Source: an uncultured Candidatus Saccharibacteria bacterium (GTDB lineage Bacteria; Patescibacteriota; Andersenbacteria; UBA10190). Taken from it: a stretch of 64,000 nucleotides of DNA. Of this stretch, positions 4,196 to 32,991 are shown piece by piece. The first letter of the stretch is position 1. Each line of letters starts with the position of its first letter. Both the position numbers and the translations under genes were made by a program. The notes below the pieces were generated by a model, which saw only the letters and a list, made by a program, of their open reading frames with translations, was not told the DNA's origin and did no database searches. Location: positions 8,458 to 72,457 of the forward strand of contig CAYJKV010000003.1 in the NCBI GenBank assembly GCA_964371255.1. Direction: 5' to 3'.

Positions 4196-4196
4196 T

Positions 4197-5306: not shown

Positions 5307-5493
5307 ATCGTCCTATAATATACAACAATTCCAATCCTCACAAACTTAAAAATCCGCGCCGGGTCACCTTTAGGTGATCCTCTCTGCGGCGGGTAGAACC
5401 TCGCCGCGCCGGAAAAAACCCGGGTGTTAAAGAGGCGCGGTCGTTATTATCCGGGGTGGTTACGGATCAACTATCTTCCGCTATACTAAATTC

Positions 5494-6726
5494 ATGACAA
5501 AAAACCTTTTTAAAAAATTAGCATCAACACCTAACACCAACCCAGAACCTCCTAAACCGATTTTCTTTAGCTTATCTAATTCAGACGACGCTGCCCGATT
5601 GTCTGATCTCCTAGACCAGAATCCGCACATCAAGATTATTGACACTTACGACACCCAGCTCAAAGAATTGTTTACCCTGAATAATCCCGCTTTAAAAATG
5701 AACCCGCCCGAATTGGCTAAGCAGTTCGAGGCGTACCAAAAAGAACACTACCAAGACCTCGATCCGCGACAGGCAGGAAGCTGGGTTTATCTTCCCTGGC
5801 GGTTCGTGTTGCTCCACCTTCTTCAAGACAAAGATTTCCAGCAAGTCCGCACCGGCCGCAATCGCAACCTGATCACACCGGAAGAACAAGTAAAATATTA
5901 TAACAGCACCATCGGCATTGCCGGACAGTCCGTCGGCAATAGCTGCACCTTGAGCATCGTCTTAACCGGCGGCGGTAAGCATCTCAAAATTGCCGATCCG
6001 GACACACTAGAGCTGACTAACTTAAACCGCATCCGCGGCTCCATCGCCGATCTGACAGAACCGAAAGTATACATGTCCGCCCGCCAAATTTATGAACTGA
6101 ATCCCTATGCCGACATTACCATGTTCACTGACGGCATCACTGAGGATAATATCCAGGAATTTTGCGATGGGCTGGATGTGATGGTCGAAGAGATAGACAA
6201 TCTCGAAATGAAAATCCGTCTGCGTCAGGAAGCGCAAGTCAGAAAGATTCCCATCGTCATGGCCACTGACAATGGTGATAGCGGTGTGCTCGATGTCGAG
6301 CGTCACGATCTGGCAGATAATATCCCGCCTTTTCATGGACGGGGTGGTGATGACATCGCTGAACGTGTAGTTGGCAAAAAATTACCCTTGCCGGCCATCG
6401 GACAGATTATCGGCGGGGAATTGCTTGGTTATGACATTGCCGAGGAACGAACCGTACGCTCGCTGCTGGAAATTGGGCGTTCTATTCCCACCTGGCCGCA
6501 GCTCGGCTCCGCCGCCACCCTCAACGGTGCTGTTGTCGCTGTCGCCGTGCGCCGTATTCTAACGGGACAGCCCATCGTCGATGATCGTGCCAACATTTCC
6601 GTACCAGCGCTTATTGAACCTGGTTACACCGACAAAGAAACTACCGAGAAGCGCCTTAAAACCATCCACGAACTCGGCGACCAATTCAACACCATAGTCC
6701 AGCAAATCCTCAAGCATTCAAAATAA
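5494..6726 (+). CDS. ThiF/MoeB/E1-like adenylyltransferase-fold protein with ~130-aa N-terminal extension
   Basis: Rossmann and E1 signature IGIAGQSVGNSCTLSIVLTGGGKHLKIADPDTLELTNLNR (GxGxxG ... DxDxxExxNLNR). No CxxC zinc motif is present. Confidence 0.65.
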   Translation: MTKNLFKKLASTPNTNPEPPKPIFFSLSNSDDAARLSDLLDQNPHIKIIDTYDTQLKELFTLNNPALKMNPPELAKQFEAYQKEHYQDLDPRQAGSWVYLPWRFVLLHLLQDKDFQQVRTGRNRNLITPEEQVKYYNSTIGIAGQSVGNSCTLSIVLTGGGKHLKIADPDTLELTNLNRIRGSIADLTEPKVYMSARQIYELNPYADITMFTDGITEDNIQEFCDGLDVMVEEIDNLEMKIRLRQEAQVRKIPIVMATDNGDSGVLDVERHDLADNIPPFHGRGGDDIAERVVGKKLPLPAIGQIIGGELLGYDIAEERTVRSLLEIGRSIPTWPQLGSAATLNGAVVAVAVRRILTGQPIVDDRANISVPALIEPGYTDKETTEKRLKTIHELGDQFNTIVQQILKHSK

Positions 6727-6804
6727 TTGCATCGTCCGTTGTCTATCATGATAGCCTCCAATCATGTGAGGGAATAACATTAAGAAGATTTCGCGTCTTC
6801 CCTC

Positions 6805-6892
6805 TGCCTCGCCCCGCATAGCCCCGCCAACGGCGGGGCGACGTGGGGATAAGGGGCCTGCCTGCCGGTAGGCAGGGATAGGGGGGGTCTGC
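6805..6892. other. GC-rich double hairpin in an otherwise AT-moderate intergenic region (terminator or REP-like)
   Basis: Hairpins GCCCCGCCAACGGCGGGGC (6821-6839) and CCTGCCTGCCGGTAGGCAGG (6857-6876) lie between the ThiF-like stop and the NUDIX start. Confidence 0.45.
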
Positions 6893-6926
6893 AAACCAAC
6901 ACTTTCTAACTTAATCGATCGCATCA

Positions 6927-7409
6927 ATGAAAACAGCCAAAGAAAACAATGCGTTATTTGAAGTCTCCTTAAAATTCATCATCAAGGATGAAACTGATAA
7001 AATATTACTGCTTAAAATGCCCAAAACAGGGCCTATGGGTGGGTATTATGATTTGCCGGGTGGAAGAATAAAGGAACATGAAAAATCAAAACCATTCAGT
7101 GAAATTATTTCTCGAGAACTTACAGAGGAGCTCGGCACAAAGCCACGGATTACTTTTAATCAAATTCCCGTTGCTGCAGGACGGCACACCTATCCCAGAC
7201 CATCCTCGGGTGACGATGGACATATTTTCTGGGTGTTCTTTGAAGGCCTATTTCAAGGAGGAGAGATAGAGATATCCCCCGAACACGCTGGCTATAATTG
7301 GATTAGTTTAGGTAAGCACAATCTTGATAAATACTTTGTGCGAGGCCCATGGGAAGGAATGTATAACTATTTTTATAAGAGATTTCCACCTAAATTAATC
7401 CAAGATTAA
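6927..7409 (+). CDS. NUDIX hydrolase
   Basis: Nudix box GGRIKEHEKSKPFSEIISRELTEELG (Gx5Ex7REuxEExGu). Confidence 0.75.
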   Translation: MKTAKENNALFEVSLKFIIKDETDKILLLKMPKTGPMGGYYDLPGGRIKEHEKSKPFSEIISRELTEELGTKPRITFNQIPVAAGRHTYPRPSSGDDGHIFWVFFEGLFQGGEIEISPEHAGYNWISLGKHNLDKYFVRGPWEGMYNYFYKRFPPKLIQD

Positions 7410-7511
7410 TTTTTAAATTCAGACTATTAAGAACGAGTTGGGAAGTTATAATCACCCGACAACTATTTGCGATCAAACCAAACATACCAAGCAACTGTTC
7501 CTAATGTGAAA

Positions 7512-8222
7512 CTAGTCATATTCCTTATCTGATTTCATTATGACGATTGCTTCATCAAGCAACTTTTGAAAATTTCTATTTTCCCTCCAAGCTTGTCGCA
7601 ACTTATTTCTTAGTATTTGGTGCTTGGGGTAACCCCTGTCCTCAGATAAAATCACAGCATCGAATTCAGGTTCATTCAACAGAATCGTTAGCGCTTCTTT
7701 CAAATTATCGCTTTGCTTCATATTTAATCCGTTCTTCTTCAGATAATTTCTATAGTAATGCAGAAATTGAAGATGCATGATTTCATGGCAAATTGTTGTA
7801 ATCGAATCCGGGAGGCTACGCCACAACGAAACCATGAACCAATTTCCCTTTTCGTTATATGGGCACATGTAGCCTGTCGTCCAAAAACAATTAAACTTCT
7901 CAGAACAAATCGGCTTACCTGTCATTTTCTCTAAAGCTTGCCAGTACTGTTGTTCCACCATCTTCCAGGCGACTTCTAGTGATCTTATTTCTTCTTTAAT
8001 TATCAAATCCCTGTATTTACGTTTCTGATCACCTTGCAGATACTCCCTGATTATTTCTTCAGCGTCTGTAAAACTGGCTTTTAACACCTGCGATAATAAA
8101 TTCTTTGGGATATGGCCGACTTCGTCCTTCCAGTCCAGTCCCCAGAGATTTTTATCTTTAGCAATTAAAACCCAGCTCCAAGCGTCCTTCACGATATCAT
8201 ATTGAAATTTTATTTGTGACAT
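7512..8222 (-). CDS. hypothetical protein with HExxH motif (possible zinc metallopeptidase)
   Basis: ORF with ICHEIMHLQFLHYY (HExxH). The start is taken at ATG 8222 (MSQIKFQYD). The longer TTG-initiated version to 8336 would run into repeat copy A. No family was recognised. Confidence 0.45.
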   Translation of the reverse strand: MSQIKFQYDIVKDAWSWVLIAKDKNLWGLDWKDEVGHIPKNLLSQVLKASFTDAEEIIREYLQGDQKRKYRDLIIKEEIRSLEVAWKMVEQQYWQALEKMTGKPICSEKFNCFWTTGYMCPYNEKGNWFMVSLWRSLPDSITTICHEIMHLQFLHYYRNYLKKNGLNMKQSDNLKEALTILLNEPEFDAVILSEDRGYPKHQILRNKLRQAWRENRNFQKLLDEAIVIMKSDKEYD

Positions 8223-8281
8223 ATAAATTTCTATCAATATGTACCCTGTTAACCGTGTATCCCAACAGTAGCACCTATTTT

Positions 8282-8477
8282 CTCTTGATATACTATAAAA
8301 CCACATAATCCCATGGCTCCGTCGTCCCAATAACAATCACCGCGACTCGCTATTCAACCTGCCTATCTACCCTCCCCGCCCCTAAAAAATGGGGGAGTAG
8401 ACCTAGCCTGCCAGCAGCTCACTACTGACGTTAATCAAACGCTAACGTCCTTCTCTGTTGTTAAAGCCCGATGTCAG
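8282..8477. repeat. Direct repeat copy A (~196 bp), a degenerate duplicate of the 5' end of the downstream adenylating-enzyme gene (pseudo-fragment)
   Basis: Nearly identical to 11200-11396. Relative to copy B the start codon is lost (ATA versus ATG). An A-run of 6 versus 8 causes a frameshift, and the reading frame terminates within 7 codons. Confidence 0.85.
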
Positions 8478-8721
8478 CCGGCGAGGGAGAGGTTGGGCTC
8501 ACCGAAACAATTGTCAACCAACACTGACAAAACCATTTATTAATAATTGTCAAAAATCAGTTCTAACACTATGATTACACGTTGTATCTACTGTTGGTTC
8601 TTTAGACAAAAATCCCACATACAAGACCTTGTTGAAGAGCGCATAACGCTAATCGCCAGCAATGTTGCCAGCGGCTACTTCACAATGTACGTGTGTTAGG
8701 TATAGAAAGGAGGTTAATACG

Positions 8722-8880
8722 ATGAAGACAGAGCAAGTCAAGGGCATGCAAGAGAAACAGACTTACGGATTCAGCGGAAAACAAGAATCTGCCAAGATTT
8801 CTCTGAAAGCCACCAAAGTTCATGTCCAAAAGAGAGGAATGAATTCTGGCATCTCAGGCGGAAGTTCCCAATGTTGCTGA
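8722..8880 (+). CDS. candidate RiPP precursor peptide (52 aa, Lys-rich leader, C-terminal ...GISGGSSQCC)
   Basis: AAGGAGG sits 8 nt upstream of ATG 8722. The ORF track's longer 8662 start lacks an RBS. The peptide lies immediately upstream of an RRE-radical-SAM-SPASM gene and is followed by a hairpin terminator. Confidence 0.5.
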   Translation: MKTEQVKGMQEKQTYGFSGKQESAKISLKATKVHVQKRGMNSGISGGSSQCC

Positions 8881-8892
8881 ACAGATAAACTC

Positions 8893-8936
8893 GCGTGGCA
8901 TGTAATTGCTTTTTTGCATCATGCCACGCCTTTTTT
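8893..8936 (+). terminator. intrinsic terminator/attenuator between the precursor peptide and the radical SAM gene
   Basis: Stem GCGTGGCATG...CATGCCACGC is followed by CTTTTTT. Confidence 0.6.
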
Positions 8937-8950
8937 AAAAGGAGAACAGA

Positions 8951-10285
8951 ATGTCACCAACATATGTGAGGTTAGCTGATAGTGCCATATTCAAATCACG
9001 CTATGAGCAGAGGTACCTGATCAACACCTCTTGTCGTAACCGGGAACGCATTCTAATTGAAGGAGGGGCTGAACAAGTATTGCTTTTTCTATTTTCAGGA
9101 AAAAGTATCAGTGGCGCATGTACACATTTTTGTCTGGATTCAGAACAACTGACTGCCTATATACAAGGGCTGGTAGCCGAAAATGTTGTTGCTTGGTGCA
9201 CCAGTGCGATTGACTCCACAGCAAAGTGCTACAACACAGAGCCGCCACTCGATAGTATAAACATTCTTCTCACAAACGCGTGCAATCTTCATTGTGTACA
9301 CTGTGGCTTCTCGAGTGGCAAACCAATCGTGGGGGAACTAACTGGAGATGAGTGGATTAGTGTTCTTCAGGAAGCAGAACAGCTCGGTGTTTTTGAGGTC
9401 AACGTTTCCGGAGGAGAGCCAACGCTTCATAGAAATTTTATTCAGATAGCAAAACATATTTCTTCGATCCCATGCTTCAATGCCAATCTGAATACTAATG
9501 GTGTATCATTACCACCCCAGTACATTGAAACCATCGCGCAGGCCTTCACTAGTGTCCAAATTAGTATTGACGATGTTGTAGCATCAAAACATGACAAGTT
9601 TCGTGGTCGCAGAGGAAGTTTCAAGCGGTCAATAGAAACAATAAGACAGCTCGTCAATACAGGCGTCGAAACGAATATCGGTTTTACGTTAACCGCTGAT
9701 AATATTACAGCCCTAGATGATATTGTTGAGTTAGCGGAAAACTTAGGTGTCACTGTGCTGAACATCGGTCTAGTTGCCAATCTTGGTCGTGCTCACGATA
9801 ACCTACTACTAAAGGAGTTTGGAACAGGGCCGTGTCATAACAGTCCATTCATGGACCAAGTGTACCAGAGGATAAAGAAGTTATCGGTTAGTTCATCAAA
9901 TGTCCAGATTCTCCTGCCGTTTCGCATCCCTGACAAAAACCGGCCCGCGCCATTACAAGATAAGCGATACATTTGTGACGGCGATAACACGCAGGTTCTC
10001 TACATAACAGCGAATGGAAATATGATGCCTTGTGACAAGTTACCAGTTGAGGCGTTCTCTTACGGCAATGTGCGGCAGAACACGATACTGGGTACTTGGC
10101 AGTCTGATCGGATGAAAAAGTTCAAACTAATGAGTCCTAATGAGCTTCCCAAATGTAAAAAGTGCCCCGATTTAAGATTGTGTGGCGGAGCTTGTGTAGC
10201 ACGTGCTTATCAAGAGGGTGGTAGTCTGGATTCCTCAGATTGGATATCATGCGTTATTGCACAAAAGGTTTCTCAAGACTACTAG
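8951..10285 (+). CDS. radical SAM / SPASM-domain peptide-modifying enzyme with N-terminal PqqD-like RRE
   Basis: Cx3Cx2C motif NACNLHCVHCGF. The C-terminal Cys-rich SPASM region includes CDGD...MPCDKL...CKKCPDLRLCGGACVARAY. The first ~90 aa have a PqqD/RRE-like pattern. AAGGAG lies 7 nt upstream of the ATG. Confidence 0.8.
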   Translation: MSPTYVRLADSAIFKSRYEQRYLINTSCRNRERILIEGGAEQVLLFLFSGKSISGACTHFCLDSEQLTAYIQGLVAENVVAWCTSAIDSTAKCYNTEPPLDSINILLTNACNLHCVHCGFSSGKPIVGELTGDEWISVLQEAEQLGVFEVNVSGGEPTLHRNFIQIAKHISSIPCFNANLNTNGVSLPPQYIETIAQAFTSVQISIDDVVASKHDKFRGRRGSFKRSIETIRQLVNTGVETNIGFTLTADNITALDDIVELAENLGVTVLNIGLVANLGRAHDNLLLKEFGTGPCHNSPFMDQVYQRIKKLSVSSSNVQILLPFRIPDKNRPAPLQDKRYICDGDNTQVLYITANGNMMPCDKLPVEAFSYGNVRQNTILGTWQSDRMKKFKLMSPNELPKCKKCPDLRLCGGACVARAYQEGGSLDSSDWISCVIAQKVSQDY

Positions 10286-15984: not shown

Positions 15985-16039
15985 TCCATCGTACTCTTTA
16001 GGAGACAGATTTATGGCCGCATGTAACATTGCGGCTTTT

Positions 16040-16390
16040 TTATACTACCATTCCTAAAACCATCATTATTCCAATAATAAATACCCCCAAACTTAAATGT
16101 AACCACCCAGACAGATATCTGCGATGCAGAATTCGATAAACTCCAAAAAGAGCCAGCATACCAATACTACCTATCCATAAAAAACCAAATAAACCCGTCA
16201 ATATTAGTAATAAAATTGACGTCTCGTCTCGCATCCAGGCAAAACGATTAATAGAAGAGAAGAATACACTTAAGAATCCAAGAGACATTGAAACTAATAA
16301 AGGCAGCCACCACGACTCGACATATAACCTTATAAATCTTTCAAAGGATGGTAGGGACTGAGCAGGTATCTTTTGACCGTTATTTACCAT
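16040..16390 (-). CDS. hypothetical small membrane protein (3-4 TM helices)
   Basis: Hydrophobic ORF with no recognised family. Confidence 0.35.
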   Translation of the reverse strand: MVNNGQKIPAQSLPSFERFIRLYVESWWLPLLVSMSLGFLSVFFSSINRFAWMRDETSILLLILTGLFGFLWIGSIGMLALFGVYRILHRRYLSGWLHLSLGVFIIGIMMVLGMVV

Positions 16391-16522
16391 AAATAATTTA
16401 TACTCTTAAAAAAGATATATCTCAATCTGTATGCCTCATAAAAGTAGGACATTACACGAGATGACATAGCCATAATCTTCTAAACAACTAAAATATTCCT
16501 TTAGCAGAGCGTAAAATAAAAA

Positions 16523-16564
16523 ATGTCAATAACCATTGACAAAAACCTGTTGCCATAATATAAA
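16523..16564 (+). promoter_or_regulatory. sigma70-like promoter (TTGACA-17-TATAAA) embedded in palindrome ATGTCAATAACCATTGACAAAA
   Basis: -35 at 16536-16541, a 17-nt spacer, and -10 TATAAA at 16559-16564. It lies about 50 bp upstream of the secreted-protein gene. Confidence 0.5.
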
Positions 16565-16615
16565 TAAAAGCCCAAAGTAAGCGAAATTAATTATTTAAAT
16601 AAATCTGTGAAAACA

Positions 16616-17512
16616 ATGAAAAGTCTAATTATACTTACAGGAGCGATTTTATTGCTCTCCCCATCAATCGGCTACGCGGTCACCAGTCAGGTTTGGGTAG
16701 ACGATTTCGCTGTGAGTTTATGCGGTAATCAAAGCTTCGCCTTCTCAGGAACAGCTGAACTCAATAGTTCGGAAGAATTACTGGTGAAACTAGACAATGT
16801 GATTATTAATCACACCTTAAGCGACATTAATTGGATAACCGGACTGACACCGGTTGGTGTTGGTGCTCACACGATCAGAGCGGAAATAGTTCGCACTGCT
16901 GATAATTACATCGTAAACCAGCACCAAAGACCCTTTGTTGTTGCTTCTTGTGTGGTAAATCCCACGCCAGCCCCATCCAATGAAGGCAGCAATAGTGATT
17001 CTGACGGAGGAGGTAGTTCTGGCGGTGGTGGCGGTGGAGACGGGGGAGACGACGGCAACAACACGCCAGAACCGGCAGCTAGAAAACCTAAAGTTAAAGG
17101 CGCTAAAATCAAAGGCTCGAAATGCAGCATAGCTAACCTATCAGTACCTGCCGTTGTCGCCCGTAACTTCTCGCAAGTCTTCGGCCGCTCTATTACCCAC
17201 GCTGAAAGTGTTTATTGGAAAACAAGAGCCAGAGGCGACAAATGTAATGAAATTACTTTGGCGGGCGCGATGCGATGGCATAAACAAAAAGGTTCCGCCG
17301 GACCTACCAGAAGCCAAAACGTAGCGGGTATCAATCATGTCTCAGGTAAAGTACATCAATCTCAGATAAATTCGTTATTCCTCTCGGTTTATAACCGCAA
17401 CCCTAGCATCAGTGAAAATTCATACTGGCTATCCCGAATAAACGACAAACCATCCGTGGCCGCCATGCTTGGTGCTATGAAATTTCATTTGGCAACCCGT
17501 ATATCGCACTAG
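16616..17512 (+). CDS. secreted Gly/Asp-rich protein with two DUF4214-like motifs
   Basis: Signal peptide MKSLIILTGAILLLSPSIGYA. A low-complexity region SDSDGGGSSGGGGGGDGGDDGNN is present. Motifs ESVYWKTRARGDK...LAGAMRWH and ENSYWLSRINDKPSVAAMLGAMKFH also occur. The ATG 16616 start is preferred over the track's GTG 16607. Confidence 0.65.
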   Translation: MKSLIILTGAILLLSPSIGYAVTSQVWVDDFAVSLCGNQSFAFSGTAELNSSEELLVKLDNVIINHTLSDINWITGLTPVGVGAHTIRAEIVRTADNYIVNQHQRPFVVASCVVNPTPAPSNEGSNSDSDGGGSSGGGGGGDGGDDGNNTPEPAARKPKVKGAKIKGSKCSIANLSVPAVVARNFSQVFGRSITHAESVYWKTRARGDKCNEITLAGAMRWHKQKGSAGPTRSQNVAGINHVSGKVHQSQINSLFLSVYNRNPSISENSYWLSRINDKPSVAAMLGAMKFHLATRISH

Positions 17513-17729
17513 GCGTACCGATTAAATTTATTACCGCCAATGTTACAGATAGCAATTGCATTCTTGGCTTGAACTAGTAACTATCGTAACCACTTTCTAC
17601 GGTTGCTCTCTTAAACAATCAACAAACCAATCTAGAAGTATGTCCGTACTATCAGTGCGGTACAAAATGTCATCCCCATGCATATTAGTAAAACCTATTA
17701 CCCGCTTGCTATACTTAAAAAGGAAGTCT

Positions 17730-18707
17730 ATGGATACCATACAAAAACCTGTAATAAAAAAACGTTCTGCAATTATTGATGCCGCCATTCTTGATTTGCT
17801 TGAGTACAGAAAAAGTTGCGATCAGCAACTATATTATTCAATAGATGAAAACATCAGGTTCTTTGAGGCTGCTCGTTCGTTGCCTCGTTATATTTTTTGG
17901 CTCCTTACAGAATACTCTAAAATCAACGGACATCGTATCTTAGAGCTTTCAGATTTTCATTTGCGTGAGGGTGAATGGGAAAAGATGTTGCTTGGTCAAC
18001 TGCTTACCCTGGAAAGAAAAAACATTCCAGACCTGATCGGACCATTAAGGAAACAGCTATCAAAAGAAATCCGAACAATAACTCAGCAAAAAAATGAACC
18101 AATCGTAGTAATTAATATGGGCTGTGGCGGAATGGAAACCGAGCGAAGAATAGCCTTAGGGCTATTCAAAAAACCTCTTACCCAACCCATCATCTTTATT
18201 GGTATCGATTCTTCCCCAGCTGCCATCAAGGTTGCTCAGCAAAATTTGCGTAGTTTTAGTAAGGAATTTACGCAATTGGAAAGCCTTACCCCTGATGTCA
18301 TTCATTCAATCAAAAATATCCAAACAGACAAACCTGTTCAATTTAAAGTATTTATTGGCGATGCCCTAAATATTCATAATTATGCCGAGCCTCAAACAAT
18401 CGACATAATTTTTCATTCCAAGTTTCATCATCATCTGTCAGATCAAGACAAAAGACGCTTTGACGATATGATAAGAAAGACTGCTTGTTGTGCAATCGAA
18501 TTCGATGATTATCGGGGTGCCTATTTACCTATACTCTCTATCCTAACCGGCTGGAATAAGCCCATTCTACTAAATGGCGCTGTTATTAGCAGTCTGCGTG
18601 ATCCAACTAAAGAGGATATTAAAAACTACAAAAAAGAAGGATGGATAACCAAAATCTATCCGTTAAAAGGATTTTTGAAAATACATCACTCGTCCCAAAC
18701 CTGTTAA
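17730..18707 (+). CDS. putative class I SAM-dependent methyltransferase-fold protein
   Basis: Gly-rich motif VINMGCGGMETERRIALGL followed by IFIGIDSSPAAIKVAQQNL. The start is taken at ATG 17730, which has AGGAAG upstream. The track's TTG 17556 gives a longer version. Confidence 0.4.
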   Translation: MDTIQKPVIKKRSAIIDAAILDLLEYRKSCDQQLYYSIDENIRFFEAARSLPRYIFWLLTEYSKINGHRILELSDFHLREGEWEKMLLGQLLTLERKNIPDLIGPLRKQLSKEIRTITQQKNEPIVVINMGCGGMETERRIALGLFKKPLTQPIIFIGIDSSPAAIKVAQQNLRSFSKEFTQLESLTPDVIHSIKNIQTDKPVQFKVFIGDALNIHNYAEPQTIDIIFHSKFHHHLSDQDKRRFDDMIRKTACCAIEFDDYRGAYLPILSILTGWNKPILLNGAVISSLRDPTKEDIKNYKKEGWITKIYPLKGFLKIHHSSQTC

Positions 18708-18737
18708 TATAGAAGCACCACTTAACCAGCAGTCTTT

Positions 18738-20990
18738 ATGTACGCAGAAACAGTCTTCCGTCTTATTATTCTTTCCATAACTATAATTCTCGGCTTTCTT
18801 GCATATCGCAGGAATTCTCGTCATGCAACCAATACACTTCTGGCACTACTAACCGTCCTAATTTTTTTATGGGGTGTTAGTAATGAAATATCACTTTATT
18901 CAACAACTACCACAGGCACATTGTTCTGGATCCGCATGACGATGTTTTTTGCGGTACCAACAGCTGTCCTCTTTTTTGTTTTTATGCATACGTTTCCTCG
19001 TGCCAGCCTCGCGATGTCACGTCAACTAATGGCACTCGTTCTTCTAGTGACTGGCAGTGTTATGTCACTATCGTTATCACCCTGGTTGTTCACCACTATT
19101 GCCGATGGCGTGGGAGCAAACGCGAAACCTGTGCCAGGGTTTGGCATTATAATATTTGCCTTAACAGTCACCGCCGCAAATCTAACTGCTATCTACCTTT
19201 TGATTGTAAAAAACTTTAAACTCTCTGGCGTCTTTAAGCTCCAAGCCCGTTATCTCTTGCTTGGTACAGCCATTACTCTGAGTTTAATCATGGGTCTCGT
19301 TTTCTTCCCAGTTGTCTTGCTCCGCTTCACTGCTTTTGTGCCCTATCAGAGTGAGCTCATGCTACCTTTTGTCGCCCTCACCGCCTACGCCATTGTCCGT
19401 TACCGCCTCATGGACATCCGCGCTGCCATCGCTCGCAGTCTTTCCTTTTCCATTCTGCTCGGCGCCTTCTTCGCCATCTACGGCGCTATTCTCATCTTCG
19501 CTGTACCACGTTTAGCTGACTGGTTAGGTATCCGTGAAGGGTTTATCGCCGCTGTCGGCGCCCTTCTCTCTGTTTTGCTTGCCCGCTATATCCAAGAAGC
19601 CCTGCGCCGTCTCACCGACCGTTTCCTTTTCCAAAACCAAATTGATTACCGCCGCGCTCTCGTTGAAACCAGCAAGGAACTATCTACCACCATCCACATC
19701 GAAGACGTCACCAGGACTGTCCTGGATATTATGGAGAAGGTTATCCGTACTAAGAAAACCATCATTTTTCTTCAGGAAAACAAAGGCCACAATTTTACCC
19801 CTTATGCCAACCGCGGCGCCAGTTCCATCAAAGTCTCTATCCCCAAGGAGCATGTCCTAGTTCGCCATATTCAACACAACATGGGCCTGCTTGTTAAGGA
19901 TGAATTGGCTCATGAGCGCGAGCAGGAACGCGACGAATCCCACGCAGCGGAAATTAAGCAAGTGGAGCAAACTTTTGTCTGGCTCGACATGGCTGTCGTG
20001 TTACCCCTGTACGTTAACAAACAACTGACCGGCCTGATCGTTCTGGGCGACAAAAAATCCGGCACTCCTTACATGCAGGATGACCTAAACTTTCTAGCTG
20101 CCTTATCTCCCCAGGCTGCCACCGCCCTCGAAAATGCCCGTCTCTACCAGGAATCTCTGGCTTTCGGGGAAAAATTGAAATCTGAAGTTAAGCGCGCCAC
20201 TCACGAACTGGAAATTGCCAACGCCCAGTTGCGCGACTTAGACAAGGCCAAGAGTGAATTCTTGAGCATCGCTAGCCACCAGTTGTACACCCCCATGACC
20301 GCCCTCCGGGGCTACCTGTCCATGTTGCGGGAAGGGGACTATGGCGCTACTCCATCCAAACAACAACCCATCATTAAAATTCTGGAAACCAGCTCTACCC
20401 GCCTCATTAATCTAATCAAGAATTTACTCGATGTGTCGCGCATTGAAAGCGGCCGTCTTGAGCTCAATCTTGAGTCGCTGGACTTTAGTCACATGGTTAA
20501 AGAGCTTGTCCAAGATCTCATGCCTAACGCCCTTAACAAAAAAGTTAAGCTGCAATACTACCAGCCTGCAGAACAATTGCCCCATGTCGTGGCCGACCAG
20601 GAACGCGTTCGCCAGGTCATCCTCAACATCGTTGACAATGCCATTAAATACACAGACCAAGGTCGCATTGATGTCCGTGTGCAGCAAACGGACCACACCA
20701 TCACCCTTACGGTCAATGACACGGGCCGCGGCATGACGCCGGACGAAATGACCAAGCTCTTCACCAAATTCACCCGTGTCGGCGGTGCCTCCAAATACCG
20801 CAAAGAGGGGACTGGCCTTGGCCTCTACGTTGCCAAGCAAATCATCCGCGAGCATCATGGCGACATCGAAATAACGAGTCCCGGCCTGAACCACGGCTCT
20901 ACTTTCTATGTTCATCTGCCCATCGAAGGCTCGCCCAATGCCCTCACCGCCGGCAAGAAAGTATCCGTCGAAATTAAAGCGGGGAAATAA
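18738..20990 (+). CDS. sensor histidine kinase (multi-TM N-terminal sensor, GAF, HisKA, HATPase_c)
   Basis: About 6 N-terminal TM helices. A GAF-like region ends at ...LENARLYQE. The H-box is LSIASHQLYTPMTAL. N/G1/G2 boxes NIVDNAIKYT, DTGRGM and GTGLGL are present. Confidence 0.85.
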   Translation: MYAETVFRLIILSITIILGFLAYRRNSRHATNTLLALLTVLIFLWGVSNEISLYSTTTTGTLFWIRMTMFFAVPTAVLFFVFMHTFPRASLAMSRQLMALVLLVTGSVMSLSLSPWLFTTIADGVGANAKPVPGFGIIIFALTVTAANLTAIYLLIVKNFKLSGVFKLQARYLLLGTAITLSLIMGLVFFPVVLLRFTAFVPYQSELMLPFVALTAYAIVRYRLMDIRAAIARSLSFSILLGAFFAIYGAILIFAVPRLADWLGIREGFIAAVGALLSVLLARYIQEALRRLTDRFLFQNQIDYRRALVETSKELSTTIHIEDVTRTVLDIMEKVIRTKKTIIFLQENKGHNFTPYANRGASSIKVSIPKEHVLVRHIQHNMGLLVKDELAHEREQERDESHAAEIKQVEQTFVWLDMAVVLPLYVNKQLTGLIVLGDKKSGTPYMQDDLNFLAALSPQAATALENARLYQESLAFGEKLKSEVKRATHELEIANAQLRDLDKAKSEFLSIASHQLYTPMTALRGYLSMLREGDYGATPSKQQPIIKILETSSTRLINLIKNLLDVSRIESGRLELNLESLDFSHMVKELVQDLMPNALNKKVKLQYYQPAEQLPHVVADQERVRQVILNIVDNAIKYTDQGRIDVRVQQTDHTITLTVNDTGRGMTPDEMTKLFTKFTRVGGASKYRKEGTGLGLYVAKQIIREHHGDIEITSPGLNHGSTFYVHLPIEGSPNALTAGKKVSVEIKAGK

Positions 20991-27447: not shown

Positions 27448-27520
27448 ACACTAAGTGTGCACTCGGCAGGATTCGAACCTGCGACCCCCAGCTCCGCAAG
27501 CTGATGCTCTATCCACTGAG
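27448..27520 (-). tRNA. tRNA-Arg (anticodon read as GCG)
   Basis: Manual cloverleaf with acceptor GCACTCG/CGAGTGC, D-arm GCTCAGTGGATAGAGC, anticodon loop TTGCGGA and T-arm GCAGGTTCGAATCCTGC. It resembles E. coli tRNA-Arg. No CCA is encoded. Confidence 0.7.
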
Positions 27521-27825
27521 CTACGAGTGCCCAACTACGCTCTGCTTTCCAGCAGAACTTCGTTGGGCGAGAGGTACGTTATTTAACGTACGCTCGTCCC
27601 GCGAAGCCCTGAGAGAATGCGAAGGGCGAAGTGGGAAGCTACGAGTGCAAGATATAAAATTTTACAGTTTTCAAATCACGTTTTTACAAAGATCCGCGAT
27701 TTCCCCGTGAGTTTACAATACCATCAAAACTCTGGCAACTTTCCCCTTGGTACACCTTCAGGGCATGCCAGGAACTTTCCGGCCGGATAAAAACTATTTA
27801 TAATTAAAAGTGTTATACTATTTCT

Positions 27826-28527
27826 ATGATTATTAGCCGATTTCGTCGTCGCGAAAACAAGCTGCAGCCGCCTATCCCGTCCCAGCCCCAGTCCCCGCCA
27901 GCTACAGATCAATGGAGAAAAAATCACCCTAACGAACCTCTTCGTCAGGCTGCTGAAAAACGCATCGGAACAAGTCAGACGGACCCTCGTTGGCAACATG
28001 AAGCAAAAGAAATGCGGGCCACTCATGACTTGGATGAGGTTGATGATGATGTCGAAAAAGCTGCCACTTTGCTTGAATGGCGGGCGCTGGAACACGAACA
28101 TCGTCCCAAAAGTACTGTCTGGTTCGCGGTCTTGGCTGGCGGAACAACTGCCATCGTCGGCATTATGTTGTTTATTTTTACCAACATCATAGGTGCGATT
28201 ACTGTCGGCCTAATTGGGGGATTAATGTACTACATAGCCCAACAAAAACCGAATGTTACTCGCTATCGGATTATGCTAGATGGCATTGCTTTAAATAATA
28301 TTCTCTACCACTGGGAAGACTTAGCCGCCTTTAATGTTATCTATGAGCCGGGCGAAACCAAGACTGTGATTTTTCGCAGTGCTAAACGTTTTTCACCTTA
28401 CCTGCACATGGAAATAGGGGACGCTGACCCCATAGCTATCCGCGAGATTTTAATGGAATTCGTCACCGAAGATCAGAGCATTGAGGAGCCCATCGCCGAT
28501 ATCATCGCGCGCCGTCTCGGGTTTTAA
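27826..28527 (+). CDS. hypothetical membrane protein (2 TM helices plus possible bacterial PH-like C-terminal domain)
   Basis: TM helices VWFAVLAGGTTAIVGIMLFIF and IIGAITVGLIGGLMYYI. No recognisable catalytic motif. Confidence 0.45.
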   Translation: MIISRFRRRENKLQPPIPSQPQSPPATDQWRKNHPNEPLRQAAEKRIGTSQTDPRWQHEAKEMRATHDLDEVDDDVEKAATLLEWRALEHEHRPKSTVWFAVLAGGTTAIVGIMLFIFTNIIGAITVGLIGGLMYYIAQQKPNVTRYRIMLDGIALNNILYHWEDLAAFNVIYEPGETKTVIFRSAKRFSPYLHMEIGDADPIAIREILMEFVTEDQSIEEPIADIIARRLGF

Positions 28528-28731
28528 AACCAAAAGCTGCAAGATAAAACGACGGATAAAAACCGCCGTTATTTATTTGGGCGGGCCACTAGAGTTAAGT
28601 GCCACCACAGTATGGTATGTTGAGGCCTTTTTCAAGCATTAGTTTGGGCTTGGATTTGAGGCACTCGAGTCGCTATCTAATTTCCGAACTGTTACAAATG
28701 TTACGTTTTTTGGGTTTTGGAGTGTAACATT

Positions 28732-29232
28732 TTATATGATCCGAGTCTCCATTAATTGAATAGTCAGAGCCTGCTCACTCACACGATAGAGCTTTGATAA
28801 CTCTTTTAAATTTCGGGTTTTCTTAAAATCATTTTTAATAAAATCTGTTGGCATAAGCAGTTCGCTTGCAAAAACATTAGCCTCGCGCTCGTTATGAGAC
28901 CCACCACCCTCACTGTTACAGGTATGGCCAAGTAATAGGTGTCCTATCTCATGAGCAATAGTGAAGCGACGTCGATACCAAGGATGACTGGCATTAAAGC
29001 CAATCGTTACGTACTCTTCATCAACTTCCTTGCAGACCACTAGCAACCCGGACACCCTCTCTCCTGCGTCGGGTATATGCTGAACTGCAATTGACCGCGT
29101 AGACTGCAGATACTCAATAACTCGTTGCAAGGAAACAGGAGCCTTGTTCACCGCAACATCTTTTAGAAGTCGTGCCGCGAGGGTCTTAGCAAACTTTTTT
29201 CTGGGACCCAGATTAGGAAGATCGCTTTCCAT
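28732..29232 (-). CDS. ImmA/IrrE-family zinc metallopeptidase
   Basis: HEXXH motif FTIAHEIGHLLLGH in a 160-180-aa protein. It overlaps the 3' end of the upstream XRE gene. The start at MESDL is chosen and a longer version is possible. Confidence 0.7.
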   Translation of the reverse strand: MESDLPNLGPRKKFAKTLAARLLKDVAVNKAPVSLQRVIEYLQSTRSIAVQHIPDAGERVSGLLVVCKEVDEEYVTIGFNASHPWYRRRFTIAHEIGHLLLGHTCNSEGGGSHNEREANVFASELLMPTDFIKNDFKKTRNLKELSKLYRVSEQALTIQLMETRII

Positions 29233-29557
29233 GCTTCTTTTTAGCCATTTCAATAAAATGCAATATGGCATACTTATCTTCGTCGCTTAAATCCTTATCA
29301 GTCCGTAATGCAATTCGCACGTCGACAGGAGCGTCTTCGTCTTGTCCTAGAAAATACTTCGTATCCCTGTGCAAAACTTCGGCAAGTTTAGGCAAAATAC
29401 CCGACGGCACCCGTCGCTCACCACTTTCAATAAGCGAGATCGCAGTAGCAGATTGAAAGCCTACAATTTTAGCTAATTTGAGCTGGGAAAGCCCCCTAGC
29501 CTCACGGGCGGCCTTGATGCGGTCTCCAATACCCCCCTTGTTTTGTTCATTTTTCAT
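29213..29557 (-). CDS. XRE-family helix-turn-helix transcriptional repressor (ImmR/DdrO-like)
   Basis: HTH RIKAAREARGLSQLKLAKIVGFQSATAISLIESGERRVP. It pairs with the downstream ImmA/IrrE gene. ATG 29557 is taken as the start. Confidence 0.7.
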   Translation of the reverse strand: MKNEQNKGGIGDRIKAAREARGLSQLKLAKIVGFQSATAISLIESGERRVPSGILPKLAEVLHRDTKYFLGQDEDAPVDVRIALRTDKDLSDEDKYAILHFIEMAKKKHGKRSS

Positions 29558-29574
29558 ATTGTAACTATAGTATT

Positions 29575-29614
29575 TGCACTTTGATTTGACAAGTGCATTT
29601 ACGTTTTGATAAAT
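29575..29614 (+). promoter_or_regulatory. divergent promoter/operator: palindrome TGCACT-N11-AGTGCA overlapping a TTGACA-17-ATAAAT promoter
   Basis: -35 TTGACA at 29586-29591, a 17-nt spacer, and -10 ATAAAT at 29609-29614, reading toward the GIY-YIG gene. Inverted repeat arms lie at 29575-29580 and 29592-29597. The XRE gene diverges from this region. Confidence 0.5.
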
Positions 29615-29692
29615 TGTGTATAGCAAAGTGAAAGCCGATAGGTCGACGGTGTTCAGCTTTGTCACTTAATTAACAATAGGTAAAAAATCACT

Positions 29693-29998
29693 ATGATCAA
29701 TAAGTACCAAGGAAACTATCCCTATAGTAAAGCAATTGTCAGCGGCTGGAATTCGGTCGCAACAGGTGTCTACTATTGCGGCTCCCTGTCTAATGGTGCC
29801 TTAACGGCACTCTATATAGGGAAGGCAGTTGCTGACGGAGGCATACGCAACCGACTTCTTCAGCACCTGCAAAGCGACAACTGGCCAGGCGTTACTCACT
29901 TTGGGTATCGCACCTGCACCACAGCCCAAGAAGCGGAAAACCTTGAGGCAAGTGAAATCAAGCGCTGTCAGCCAAGGTATAACACACAGGGGAAATGA
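29693..29998 (+). CDS. GIY-YIG nuclease-domain protein (small, stand-alone)
   Basis: GVYY...LYIGKA...RLLQHL...EAENLEASEIKRCQPRYN fits GIY-YIG motifs (GIY, YIG, R, H, E...N). Confidence 0.6.
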   Translation: MINKYQGNYPYSKAIVSGWNSVATGVYYCGSLSNGALTALYIGKAVADGGIRNRLLQHLQSDNWPGVTHFGYRTCTTAQEAENLEASEIKRCQPRYNTQGK

Positions 29999-30031
29999 TA
30001 CGGAAAATCCGTAAAATTAAGCTGAGGCGTA

Positions 30032-30058
30032 AAAGGAGTTAGCAATGCTAGCTCCTTT
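30032..30058. terminator. bidirectional hairpin between convergent GIY-YIG and dinD genes
   Basis: AAAGGAGTTAGCAATGCTAGCTCCTTT has a nested stem (AAAGGAG/CTCCTTT and TAGCA/TGCTA). Confidence 0.45.
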
Positions 30059-30256
30059 ACTATTACCATAAATATATGTCCGCCAAAGAAAAAAATAAGT
30101 ACATATACACCACCGACTATTACCGCATGCGGAAGCTGGTCAAAAATAAGCGTTTCAAGTAAAGACGGCACCAATGAAGAAAAGCGCGAATTAATGGGAT
30201 GCTTTAACTCGAAAATTACGGTCACGAAAAAAGTAGTAGCAATCAGCAAGTAGCTT

Positions 30257-31096
30257 CTACTTCTTTAGTTTTTTTATTTTGTCTAATTGGCCGACTTTTT
30301 TAATCCTTCTTTCGAGTTTTTTTATATCCTCTTCTGGCGGTAAATGTTCCGGATAGATCCCTTCGTCGGTTAACACCTCGCGCACACTGGTATTATGCGA
30401 TTCGTGGGTATGCATTATCTGATTTCCACTCTTTAAGCCTTTTTCCTTAGTCTTAAAAGTTGTCATTTCAGCAGCCAAGTCTTTTGCTTTAATGGTGATT
30501 GTCGGCAGAAAATCAGCTATGGGTCGATTACCCCTGATTCCCAGCTTATCTTTCATTTGCTTTGTCGTTCTACCTCCAAACAATGCCTTGTCGCCAGCAG
30601 ACTTGATAATAGCCAAGCCTCTTCCATCTATACCCCTTTCAAACAAGACGCCAGCAAATTCCTTTTCCGTTTGGGATAACTTTTGTCTTGCTAATAAACG
30701 CTCCAGCGCCCCCATTCGTTCTTGCTGTACTTCTTGTTTTCTGGTCTGAAAAGCAAAATATGTCTGTGCAAGAGCTATTTCTTGATTACTTCGTGGATCG
30801 CCGTTTTGTGCAATTAAGTAGCATGCATATCTTGTTAGTGCGATATCATACACGCCCGTAGCTTGCCTATTGATAGAAATTTGACTTGTTACACGGTGAA
30901 AATGGTCTTCTACCTTAAAGCCACTACGAGCACAGGCCGCTTTTGCTCGATCGATCAGTACAGAAAATTCCGTCCAGTTGGTATATCCTAGAGCTTCCAT
31001 AAAAGCACTGGCAAACCAAAACTCTTCATTATTGGCGTTTACCTGCCTAATTGCTTCAAATTTTTTACCGGCAATACTAAGCTTTAAATCTTCCAT
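30257..31096 (-). CDS. dinD: DNA-damage-inducible protein D family (DinD-like)
   Basis: EEFWFASAFMEALGY...LTRYACYLIAQNGDP...ALAQTYFAFQ parallels E. coli DinD (QEFWSARELAPLLDY...LSRYACYLVVQNGDP...AAQTYFAIQ). Confidence 0.65.
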   Translation of the reverse strand: MEDLKLSIAGKKFEAIRQVNANNEEFWFASAFMEALGYTNWTEFSVLIDRAKAACARSGFKVEDHFHRVTSQISINRQATGVYDIALTRYACYLIAQNGDPRSNQEIALAQTYFAFQTRKQEVQQERMGALERLLARQKLSQTEKEFAGVLFERGIDGRGLAIIKSAGDKALFGGRTTKQMKDKLGIRGNRPIADFLPTITIKAKDLAAEMTTFKTKEKGLKSGNQIMHTHESHNTSVREVLTDEGIYPEHLPPEEDIKKLERRIKKVGQLDKIKKLKK

Positions 31097-31189
31097 AGTC
31101 CATCTATGTTACATTTGTTGTTCGGCGTCGACAAGTCATATTGCCGTGCAGTCTAGGCACTCGCGTCACCCGATACTTAATATTTAAGG

Positions 31190-31279
31190 CGGAGAGGGTG
31201 GGATTCGAACCCACGGACCGGTTTTACCCAGTCAACGGTTTAGCAAACCGCTCTATTCGGCCACTCTAGCACCTCTCCC
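31190..31279 (-). tRNA. tRNA-Ser (anticodon GCT)
   Basis: Acceptor GGAGAGG/CCTCTCC, long variable arm, anticodon loop TGCTAAA and T-arm GTGGGTTCGAATCCCAC. Confidence 0.8.
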
Positions 31280-31384
31280 AGTAATGCATTATTACCTAAA
31301 TTTGCCTCTTATGTAAAATATTAGTATAAAGTCTGCACAGACGCATTCGTATTTATAGCTCTTTAGAAACTACTATATATTAAG

Positions 31385-31456
31385 CACCCGTAGCTCAATT
31401 GGCAGAGCAGATCCCTCTTAAGGATACGGCTGAAGGTTCAAGTCCTTCCGGGTGCA
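31385..31456 (+). tRNA. tRNA-Lys (anticodon CTT)
   Basis: Acceptor GCACCCG/CGGGTGC, D-arm GCTCAATTGGCAGAGC, anticodon loop CTCTTAA and T-arm GAAGGTTCAAGTCCTTC. Confidence 0.8.
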
Positions 31457-31517
31457 CAATAGACAATAGAGTGAAGCGACTTCCCCAACAACTTAAGATG
31501 AGATATAAAGGGTACAC

Positions 31518-31604
31518 GGAGAGATCGCATAGCGGCCGAGTGCGCGTGCTTGGAAAGCACGTAGGGCTTCACCGCCCTCGAGGGTTCGAATCCCTCTCTC
31601 TCCG
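31518..31604 (+). tRNA. tRNA-Ser (anticodon GGA)
   Basis: Acceptor GGAGAGA/TCTCTCC, anticodon stem-loop CGTGC-TTGGAAA-GCACG, long variable arm and T-arm GAGGGTTCGAATCCCTC. Confidence 0.8.
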
Positions 31605-31765
31605 CAGCAAAAAGAATTTTTGCGAGGAAGAGCGAGCGAATGACATTGAGTCATTCGCGTTGGGATGAGAAGGCCGGAGCAATGTGCGAGTTTGCCCATC
31701 AAGGCAAGGCGAGCACTGCGAGGCCAGGCCCGGAAGAAATTCCCGTCAGGGAATTTACTGTAGGG

Positions 31766-31783
31766 GAATCCCTCTCTCTCCGC
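31766..31783 (+). repeat. 18-bp direct repeat of the tRNA-Ser(GGA) 3' end (GAATCCCTCTCTCTCCGC), an att-like remnant
   Basis: Identical to 31588-31605 inside the tRNA. The intervening 160 bp carries two perfect hairpins (GCGAATGAC/GTCATTCGC and AAATTCCC/GGGAATTT). Confidence 0.6.
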
Positions 31784-31830
31784 CAAGACAAGTTTTATCG
31801 CGCAACCCATGGGTAACATACTAATAAAAT

Positions 31831-32664
31831 ATGAAGCGCTATCGTATTTTGAACATTGATTTTGATTCCAGGGCAATACTATTGTCTCAAAAAATTGGAG
31901 ATCATTGGGAAGAGCAAGTTAAAAATCTCTATCGTGAGAACAAAGAAAAGACTAGCGCTGGTCTCATTGAAGAGTTTGGGGAGTTCCGGTTTGAAGATAA
32001 GCTTAAGAATTTCTTAGATCTTGGCCCTAAGCCTTTCTCTATCATTGCATTTCACAACAAATTCTTTGAGCAATGCCGTAGAGCCTTTATTGTTGAAGCA
32101 TATTATTCAGCTCTTACAGGTGCATGTGCTCTAGGTGAAAGAATATTAAATCATTTGATTTTAGCGCTTCGTGATGATTTTAAGTCTACACCTGAGTACA
32201 AGCATGTATACCGCAATGAGTCATTCGATGATTGGAATCGGGCTATTACCACGCTTGAAACATGGAATGTTTTGTTATTATCAACAGCAAAGAAGTTTCG
32301 AGAACTTGCCGATGTTAGACACAGAGAAGCACTTCATTTCAATTCAGAAATAGAAAGCAATGATCGGGAAATTGCATTAAAAGCATTAAAACTATTAGAA
32401 AGTATAATATTAAACCAGTTTGCTGCTTGGGGAAGTTTGCCTTGGATTTTTATCATTCCGGGGCAGGCTTACATAAAGAGGCAGTATGAAGTAGATCCTT
32501 TTGTGCGAAAGGTGTATTTGCCAAACTGTGTATATGTTGGCCCCTTTCATAAAGTTAAAGAGATAACGCCAGAGGGTCACTGGATAATTCAGGATCAGGA
32601 ATATGAAGATCGGGAAATTACGGACGAGGAATTTTCTAGATTACAAACTCAAGGAAAAATTTAG
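31831..32664 (+). CDS. hypothetical protein, AT-rich (~36% GC), with Rx5H (HEPN-like) motif
   Basis: A 277-aa ORF immediately downstream of the tRNA cluster and att-like repeat. Motif ADVRHREALHF. Composition differs from its neighbours. It is followed by a hairpin terminator. Confidence 0.5.
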   Translation: MKRYRILNIDFDSRAILLSQKIGDHWEEQVKNLYRENKEKTSAGLIEEFGEFRFEDKLKNFLDLGPKPFSIIAFHNKFFEQCRRAFIVEAYYSALTGACALGERILNHLILALRDDFKSTPEYKHVYRNESFDDWNRAITTLETWNVLLLSTAKKFRELADVRHREALHFNSEIESNDREIALKALKLLESIILNQFAAWGSLPWIFIIPGQAYIKRQYEVDPFVRKVYLPNCVYVGPFHKVKEITPEGHWIIQDQEYEDREITDEEFSRLQTQGKI

Positions 32665-32777
32665 CAACAATGACCCAACCTACCTACATCAATTTGTGTT
32701 TCGAATTGACCTTCAATAAAAGCCTCAACACACGGAAAGGTGTGGGTACCTAACCCAAGTGGCCCGCATCTAATATA

Positions 32778-32803
32778 AAACCGGCATCAGCCGGTATTTT
32801 ATT
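32778..32803 (+). terminator. intrinsic terminator after the 277-aa gene
   Basis: AAACCGGCATCAGCCGGTATTTTATT. Confidence 0.6.
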
Positions 32804-32991
32804 AGATATGATACTAGTGGGATTCGAAGGGTATTCTAAAAACGTAAAATTGATTTACGTTTTTAGAAACCCTATCTGCGAAGGAGGAGCCAAACCTCAA
32901 GCGAAGCGAGTGCGAGGCGATGGGTGAGCAGGAAGCCCTCTCTTTGCAATAATAAGAGAGGCTGACCTTGCCTCCGCTGCTTTTAATTTTA

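Follow-up and report, generated by a model that had tools for sequence, protein, structure and literature searches.

How does a single AT-rich gene come to lie directly behind a duplicated tRNA end in a bacterium of the Candidate Phyla Radiation (CPR), and what might it encode? The CPR or Patescibacteria have genomes of ~ 1 Mb with few recognised mobile elements, and their acquisition of defence genes is poorly known. The question is raised by a stretch of 64,000 nucleotides (nt) of contig CAYJKV010000003.1, hereafter called the window, in which a cluster of three tRNA genes is followed by a second copy of a tRNA-Ser 3' end and by an open reading frame of 277 codons (ORF277). In our view, the tRNA-Ser ends of this locus probably constitute an integration hotspot with two layers of insertions, populated by miniature cassettes without a recombinase gene, and ORF277 is HEPN-type cargo sitting on a duplicated tRNA end. 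The features on which this explanation is built are the following.

31188-31278, minus strand: tRNA-Ser(GCT), with the 3' end ...CTCTCCGCC in minus-strand reading, the insertion point of a second cassette
31384-31457, plus strand: tRNA-Lys(CTT)
31518-31605, plus strand: tRNA-Ser(GGA)
31588-31605, plus strand: direct repeat 1 (DR1), the last 18 nt of tRNA-Ser(GGA), beginning at G57 in the T-loop
31606-31765, plus strand: unit A, a conserved non-coding module of 160 nt, GC content 0.53, with three perfect hairpins and six GCGAR motifs
31766-31783, plus strand: DR2, an exact 18-nt duplicate of the tRNA-Ser(GGA) 3' end and putative pseudo-attachment site of the ORF277 cassette
31784-32767, plus strand: ORF277 cassette, 984 bp, GC content 0.38, without a recombinase gene
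31831-32664, plus strand: ORF277, a HEPN-like protein of 277 amino acids with its core at about residues 76-196 and extra N- and C-terminal domains
32718-32767, plus strand: RE50, the conserved 50-nt right-end motif of the cassette family, ending in ...AGTGGCCCGC
32768-32807, plus strand: terminator-like palindromic hairpin
32808-32931, plus strand: unit B, a second conserved non-coding module with the motif GGGATTCGAAGGG and a 15-bp AT-rich hairpin at 32834-32868
32932-32949, plus strand: DR3, a decayed third copy of the tRNA-Ser 3' end with 13 of 18 matches

A scan of reference genomes anchored on ComF assigned the host, a groundwater bacterium with a tiny genome, to Candidatus Andersenbacteria (CPR/Patescibacteria), and 80 ComF-anchored loci taken from other genomes served for comparison. 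The insertion polymorphism is seen in the nearest of these genomes, L001 (MHHQ01000010), whose ClpC and ComF are 95% and 76% identical to those of the window at the amino-acid level; in L002, L003, L005-L008 and L012, ComF identity is 38-47%. Pairwise alignment of L001 with the window yields a single clean gap of 984 bp (31784-32767) between flanks that are ~ 90% identical. In L001, DR2 is joined straight to window position 32768 (...GGGGAATCCCTCTCTCTCCGC|ATCTAATAAAAAACCGGC...); in window orientation the junction reads ...AAATTTACTGACGGGGAATCCCTCTCTCTCCGC|ATCTAATAAAAAACCGGCATTAGCCGG..., and the module tail and the second repeat copy abut the hairpin of 32768-32807. CCGC is found at both window junctions of the gap, which read CCGC|CAAGAC and CCCGC|ATCTAA, and attB (from L001), attL and attR were all identified for this cassette. 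Within the inserted DNA, ORF277 is preceded by a 47-nt leader, which is a diverged left end, and followed by a 103-nt tail. Because the gap extends only over 31784-32767, the variable unit leaves out the 160 nt between the repeats; the original prediction, which had placed it at 31606-32810, has to be corrected in this respect.

The composition of the cassette also deviates from its surroundings. The GC content of the insert is 0.38 and that of ORF277 0.374, whereas the window as a whole has 0.469 and the neighbouring comF and clpC genes have 0.52 and 0.49. ORF277 was found in none of the 80 compared loci. An AT-rich gene missing at exactly this site in the closest relative is what had been anticipated for island cargo, and the variable presence among relatives together with the deviant composition, as in tRNA-targeted islands, supports the view that ORF277 was horizontally acquired. 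The terminator attributed to the gene exists as a hairpin at 32780-32795. However, the surrounding palindrome is also present in L001, which has the hairpin without the gene; it is therefore older than ORF277 and not the gene's own. As a separate observation, three contigs from three samples of the same population break at exactly window position 32802, within this palindrome adjoining the cassette, and further contigs of that population end inside the tRNA cluster, at 31253 and 31492 (contig set L113, L114, L116, L120 and L115). These contig ends may reflect strain heterogeneity or an assembly problem.

The three tRNA genes were called identically by ARAGORN and Rfam. The terminal sequence of tRNA-Ser(GGA), GAATCCCTCTCTCTCCGC, occurs exactly at two places on the plus strand, DR1 and DR2, as originally reported, while chance alone would give ~ 0.02 matches even if up to three mismatches were allowed. 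A search for a third copy, suggested in the original prediction, led to DR3 (GAAGCCCTCTCTTTGCAA), whose level of 13 matches was reached in 28 of 5000 shuffles; L002 has a perfect repeat copy at the corresponding position in unit B. All three copies in L002 are identical to that genome's own tRNA end, GAATCCCACCCTGTCCGC, and L017 carries two copies of its own tRNA end. The repeat copies reproduce the three substitutions that are specific to the tRNA of their own genome. In every genome the repeat begins with GAAT (G57 in the T-loop) and finishes with the tRNA gene, and it is 18 nt long if CCA is not encoded and 20 nt if CCA is encoded. A fixed-length target-site duplication was rejected on these grounds. 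Because the repeat always ends at the gene end and its length tracks the encoded CCA, an element-borne copy or selection fits better than a staggered cut. A retro-derived tRNA copy was rejected as well, since the CCA after DR2 represents the first bases of the ORF277 insert and L001 reads CCGCAT there. The suggestion that the repeats are an attL/attR pair at a tRNA 3' end holds as far as the integration hotspot is concerned, but the 18-nt repeats flank unit A and not the island of the gene. The ORF277 cassette plus unit B is bracketed by DR2 together with the decayed DR3.

What lies between the repeats is conserved among the relatives, which bear the modules without ORF277; each copy matches the tRNA-Ser end of its own genome. 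Unit B was found in L001, L002 and L017; in L002, tRNA-Ser(GGA) is followed by a terminator, unit B, a repeat, unit A and another repeat. Between L002 and the window, unit A is 79% and unit B ~ 78% identical (blastn segments), while the identity is 67% for clpC DNA and 47% for the ComF protein. Two additional copies of unit A, L093 and L099, came from a metagenome scan for its core with 18 matches, 2 of which were judged real; no intact tRNA is close to either. The L093 copy is 92% identical to that of the window, and the L099 copy is divergent, yet retains TTGGGATGAGAAGGCCGGAG and terminates in GAATCCCTCCGTCTCCGC. The 20-nt core TTGGGATGAGAAGGNCGGAG is identical in 4/4 known copies. Profiles of the units and of RE50 gave no further copies in the comparison loci with nhmmer.

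Three perfect hairpins, one more than the two described before, lie in unit A (31607-31623, 7 bp; 31636-31658, 9 bp; 31737-31756, 8 bp), and the 225 nt of 31606-31830 fold with z = -2.9, more stably than all 200 shuffles. RNAalifold predicts 20 base pairs for the four copies, 7 of them with compensatory changes, and the hairpin pairing of unit B is likewise preserved by compensatory changes in L001. GCGAR motifs are strand-specific and enriched in all three units of the window (6, 4 and 3 copies versus 0.2-0.6 expected). A 58-amino-acid open reading frame at 31640-31816 was considered as a unit A peptide and rejected: the differences number 10, 7 and 14 by codon position, and because they show no third-position bias, unit A is taken as non-coding. 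No Rfam family matched units A or B or RE50, neither at the gathering threshold nor at E ≤ 10; an sX4 match merely overlaps the tRNA. An acceptor-like stem closing the 5' end of unit A with the tRNA-like tail was also dismissed, because the pairing register shifts between genomes. Having retained its 18-nt repeats without containing an open reading frame, unit A resembles the cis-mobilizable elements (CIMEs) discussed below. The third unit lies beside another tRNA gene.

27519-27648, plus strand: unit C, a 106-nt GC-rich module (27531-27636) between two 12-nt copies of AGCTACGAGTGC

The sequence AGCTACGAGTGC is the reverse complement of the 5' end of tRNA-Arg(GCG). Unit C is situated upstream of this gene, and a native-looking promoter lies upstream of the distal AGCTACGAGTGC copy. 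In L050 (11640-11770) the same layout is found, with the repeat altered to match that genome's own tRNA-Arg 5' end. With regard to the arrangement of the tRNA genes themselves, tRNA-Arg(GCG) and tRNA-Ser(GGA) are adjacent and co-oriented in L006, L008 and L012, while 4 kb separate them in the window, where they lie on opposite strands (27457-31605). The two tRNA-Ser genes of the window contain a common 27-nt inverted repeat with 89% complementarity that could drive inversions.

The ORF277 cassette belongs to a family with common ends and variable cargo. Its best-defined other member is a second cassette on the opposite side of the tRNA cluster.

28581-31187, minus strand: second cassette, 2.6 kb, GC content 0.43, from left end to RE50, abutting tRNA-Ser(GCT)
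31165-31186, minus strand: left end of the second cassette, TAAATATTAAGTATCGGGTGAC
30257-31096, minus strand: DinD/PDC-S13, a PADLOC defence candidate (E 5e-96)
after DinD/PDC-S13 in the second cassette, minus strand: ORF93
within the second cassette, minus strand: ORF101 (101 amino acids), possibly GIY-YIG-like, with a sub-threshold DUF123 match only
29213-29665, minus strand: XRE gene
28732-29271, minus strand: ImmA/M78 protease gene
28581-28630, minus strand: RE50 of the second cassette, inverted relative to 32718-32767 and downstream of the ImmA gene

This cassette starts directly after the tRNA-Ser(GCT) 3' end (...CTCTCCGCC|TTAAATATTAAGTATCGGGTGAC on the minus strand). Besides the two RE50 copies in the window, RE50 occurs in L005 (9538-9605) after an inorganic pyrophosphatase gene and in L008 (19112-19181) after a ThsB-type TIR gene; these are just four copies in ~ 1.3 Mb of CPR-rich sequence. 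The left end TAAATATTWAGTATCGGRTGAC directly follows ...CCGCC at tRNA-Ser(GCT) of the window and in L005, another Andersenbacteria genome, where 20/22 nt are identical to the left end of the second cassette and the preceding sequence is tRNA-like (...CTCACCGCC). The right end is thus common to three cassettes with different cargo and the left end to two, and each of the three begins just after CCGC(C) and terminates in CCGC(C). With conserved ends and no recombinase, the cassettes, too, resemble CIMEs, which keep their att sites but have lost genes for integration and transfer. An origin of RE50 as a tRNA fragment was considered and discarded, because it has no T-arm geometry. A comparable island was found in the related CPR genome L072 (9400-11164), where 1.66 kb of AT-rich DNA encoding an MjaI restriction endonuclease and an N6/N4 methylase lie between tRNA-Ser(TGA) and ComF, flanked by a 20-nt tRNA-end repeat with the same GAAT start and 18/20 identical positions. 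In L008, RE50 reaches exactly to the start codon of the gene that follows; the region 16000-20624 of this locus is a small same-strand gene array beyond the tRNA-Arg/tRNA-Ser pair that includes three ~ 160-amino-acid paralogues.

From these arrangements we propose how the locus may have been assembled. An older layer, common to the relatives, would consist of units A, B and C (100-160 nt); every unit adjoins a tRNA gene and closes with a copy of the terminal 12-20 nt of that tRNA. The tRNA-Ser copy, from G57 in the T-loop to the gene end, is the same block that is duplicated by tRNA- and tmRNA-integrating elements. A second layer would be formed by the cassettes with a conserved left end, RE50 and variable cargo, which appear to insert right after ...CCGC(C) of a tRNA-Ser end: the cassette with DinD/PDC-S13, XRE and ImmA would have used the genuine tRNA-Ser(GCT), and the ORF277 cassette would have used DR2 as pseudo-attachment site. 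Most likely, a recombinase supplied in trans would act within the CCGC(C) core by conservative site-specific recombination, with RE50 and the left end as the two arms of attP. Excision by such a reaction would be expected to leave the empty-site junction ...CTCTCCGC|ATCTAATA and to produce the circle junction ...AGTGGCCCGC|CAAGACAAG.

What does the cassette carry? The motif VRHREALHF, noted in the original prediction as R-x5-H and HEPN-like, occupies residues 162-170 of ORF277, with R163 encoded at 32317-32319 and H169 at 32335-32337. Both residues of this putative catalytic dyad are invariant in 36 aligned homologues, as are E103, R104 and N107. The spacing is R-H-R-E-A-L-H (Rx5H) in the window and R-N-R-A-I-H (Rx4H) in most homologues, within the Rx4-6H motif conserved in the HEPN superfamily. 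The AlphaFold2 model (mean predicted local distance difference test score, pLDDT, 93) shows the alpha-helical up-down bundle of the HEPN fold, and the best Foldseek matches are HepT, AbiA and Csm6. These findings support the R-x-H dyad as the invariant core of a HEPN-like domain. By analogy with HepT, Csm6, LsoA and RAZR, ORF277 is most likely a regulated RNase that would halt growth on phage attack or other stress.

ORF277 is not an orphan, contrary to the initial impression that it has no family resemblance. Its homologues form 1057 clusters at 90% identity (E ≤ 0.001) and, in addition, 438 clusters at 50% identity; the best 120 of the 1057 clusters are 51-61% identical to ORF277. Named sources include WOR-3, Kouleothrix and Vibrio, and members also occur in 4 IMG/VR contigs and 2 large plasmids. 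No partner gene is common to the genomic contexts of the homologues. The homologue of Vibrio parahaemolyticus is an integron cassette with attC-like repeats on both sides. It is encoded (as P0094, L106 1-12819) in a chromosomal integron array with 17 attC-like repeats, a PhdYeFM/ParE pair and acetyltransferase cassettes. Another of the closest homologues (58% identity, L110 331-1977) lies directly downstream of a Peptidase_M78 (ImmA-like) gene, a type of protease that is also present in the neighbouring cassette of the window.

Several observations weigh against the explanation given above. No integrase, transposase, recombinase domain or pseudogene, such as the original prediction had suggested to look for, was found among the tested open reading frames of the window up to 55 kb (those at 55-64 kb lay outside the scan), and since none was found there, the recombinase must be regarded as hypothetical. 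An autonomous relative was not found either. The reconstructed attP has no clear dyad symmetry and no 8-mer arms with at least 7 matches. The viral contigs yielded neither a circular nor a phage-borne attP; when they were scanned with the cores of units A and B, the junction of RE50 and left end, the left end itself and the tail of RE50, there were no matches, or only short ones without flanking similarity that are most likely due to chance. The direct repeat around the ORF277 cassette amounts to 4-5 nt only, so that a deletion in L001 via CCGC microhomology is possible, and the leader of ORF277 is only loosely similar to the family left end. ORF277 is present in every assembly of the same population whose contig spans the site; thus, the polymorphism is one between species and not within the population. 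Units A and B show compensatory base changes that a plain att scar would not need. As to the protein, HEPN membership is argued from the predicted fold and the motif: Foldseek E-values are above 0.2, the matches to HEPN-clan profiles are not significant (Pfam DUF4145 E 0.16, in 2 of 36 members; HepT-like E 0.05-0.18), and NCBIfam yields a sub-threshold TrbD match only (E 0.02). PADLOC, PHROGs, PDB sequence profiles and BFVD gave no match.

The main rival, which we consider unlikely, holds that units A, B and C function as structured RNAs or single-stranded DNA structures and are not integration scars, and that selection keeps their mimics of the cognate tRNA's acceptor-side end matched. Possible roles of such elements are those of processing signals, of decoys for enzymes that target tRNA, and of recombination guides or landing pads. 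This reading would account for the better conservation of units A and B in comparison to clpC DNA and the ComF protein, for a unit A core that is invariant even in L099 and L093 where an intact tRNA is not nearby, for the three tRNA substitutions reproduced in the repeats, and for a strand-specific GCGAR enrichment in non-coding sequence. The compensatory changes in 7 of 20 predicted pairs of unit A, with G-U pairs on the plus strand, and the hairpin pairing of unit B that survives changes in L001 point the same way. However, no Rfam family matches these units, covariation statistics are weak with 3-4 copies per unit, the unit B hairpin resembles a bidirectional terminator, for which covariation is expected anyway, and the proposed closing stem of unit A loses its register. 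A recent spread of mobile mini-elements would equally explain both the high identity and the host-matched repeats. To a related idea we attach somewhat less credence: we speculate that units A-C may represent an undescribed class of CPR elements, structured, non-coding and tRNA-matched, which multiply the attachment site and serve as decoy landing pads or even RNA guides that capture recombinase-less defence cassettes while sparing the essential single-copy tRNA.

Two further alternatives concern the cassettes themselves and appear less probable again. Non-autonomous single-strand transposition of the HUH/Y1 (IS200/IS605-like) type, 3' of CCGCC and without target duplication, agrees with the insertion always directly 3' of CCGC(C), with a right end that also finishes with CCGC(C), with the lack of terminal inverted repeats within a cassette and of a longer target duplication, and with a hairpin inside RE50, variable in sequence, ~ 20 nt from its end. 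We nevertheless regard this as improbable: neither TnpA nor TnpB was found in the tested open reading frames of the window, a conserved hairpin is missing from the left end, RNAalifold gives no covarying pair for RE50, and four RE50 copies in ~ 1.3 Mb are few for such elements. Least probable of all is that ORF277 is ancestral at this site, has a low GC content due to its own constraints, functions in housekeeping RNA metabolism and has been lost from L001 by deletion through CCGC microhomology. In favour of this, the 4 nt of microhomology at the two junctions are as compatible with a deletion as with an insertion, and the gene is fixed in all contigs of the population that span the site. Against this, ORF277 is absent in L002 and the other Andersenbacteria loci compared, its closest homologues (61% identity) occur in unrelated contexts outside CPR genomes including the Vibrio integron, its GC content is 9 points under that of the genome, and the RE50 flanking it is also found on other variable cassettes. 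We prefer the two-layered tRNA-Ser hotspot with ORF277 as acquired cargo.

Apart from this locus, the window contains a cluster of nitroreductase-like, ThiF-like and radical SAM/SPASM genes at 3173-10285 that might be a peptide-modification locus.

On the preferred explanation, the locus offers a concrete route by which CPR bacteria could gain defence genes, with tRNA-Ser ends and their duplicates collecting recombinase-less cassettes of 1-3 kb. The cargo on this route comprises the HEPN-like protein, DinD/PDC-S13 with XRE and ImmA, and a restriction-modification pair that is seen in relatives; in one relative, the cassette end motif also follows a ThsB-type TIR gene. The conserved cassette ends provide a search handle for cataloguing cargo across CPR genomes. 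ORF277 draws attention to a large family (> 400 clusters at 50% identity, no Pfam model) of candidate HEPN effectors that also travels as an integron cassette. We infer an RNase or defence function for this gene, probably that of a HEPN-type RNA-cutting toxin or defence gene, carried by a known kind of genomic island in unusually miniature form.

In comparison with known systems, ORF277 shares with HEPN RNases (the DUF4145 branch RAZR/PD-T7-4, PMC13017515; Anantharaman et al. 2013, PMC3710099; HepT) a helical core with HEPN proteins as best structural matches, an invariant R-x4-6-H dyad in which R is followed by a polar residue (RN/RH), a sporadic single-gene occurrence in mobile context, and additional domains at both termini that might serve as sensors of a trigger. 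In contrast to these families it has no significant profile match to DUF4145, HepT or PADLOC models, its activity is a prediction, and it has neither the zinc-finger domain of RAZR nor the adjacent MNT antitoxin that accompanies HepT. The cassette resembles integron cassettes in being a promoter-poor unit of ~ 1 kb with a single open reading frame and a conserved structured 3' end. Unlike them it has no attC R''/R' boxes (RYYYAAC ... GTTRRRY) and no G|TT boundaries, no intI is found in the tested open reading frames, and its target is a tRNA end. Elements of the IS200/IS605 type fit in their target rule, but the RE50 hairpin is variable and without covariation, and the left end has none.

The closest parallels are found in Dehalococcoides, where islands stand in tandem at ssrA, a 20-bp repeat that starts in the T-loop bounds each island, a conserved motif lies next to each repeat and some islands have no integration genes (PMC3146451), and in the decayed att-only elements (CIMEs) and their accretion, as of the ICESt1 type, reviewed in PMC5704250. 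In contrast to these islands of several kb to tens of kb, the units of the window measure 160 nt to 2.6 kb, no recombinase is present in any copy seen, the core common to ORF277 cassette and target has just 4-5 nt, one module of the window duplicates a tRNA 5' end, and the host is a CPR bacterium. Relative to ssrA islands and CIME accretion, the present case thus differs in its miniature size, in having no recombinase and in its CPR host. Common to all of them are direct repeats of an RNA-gene 3' end that run from the T-loop to the gene end and stand several in tandem downstream of the gene, a conserved sequence next to the distal repeats, low-GC cargo that varies between strains, and the occurrence of units without integration genes.

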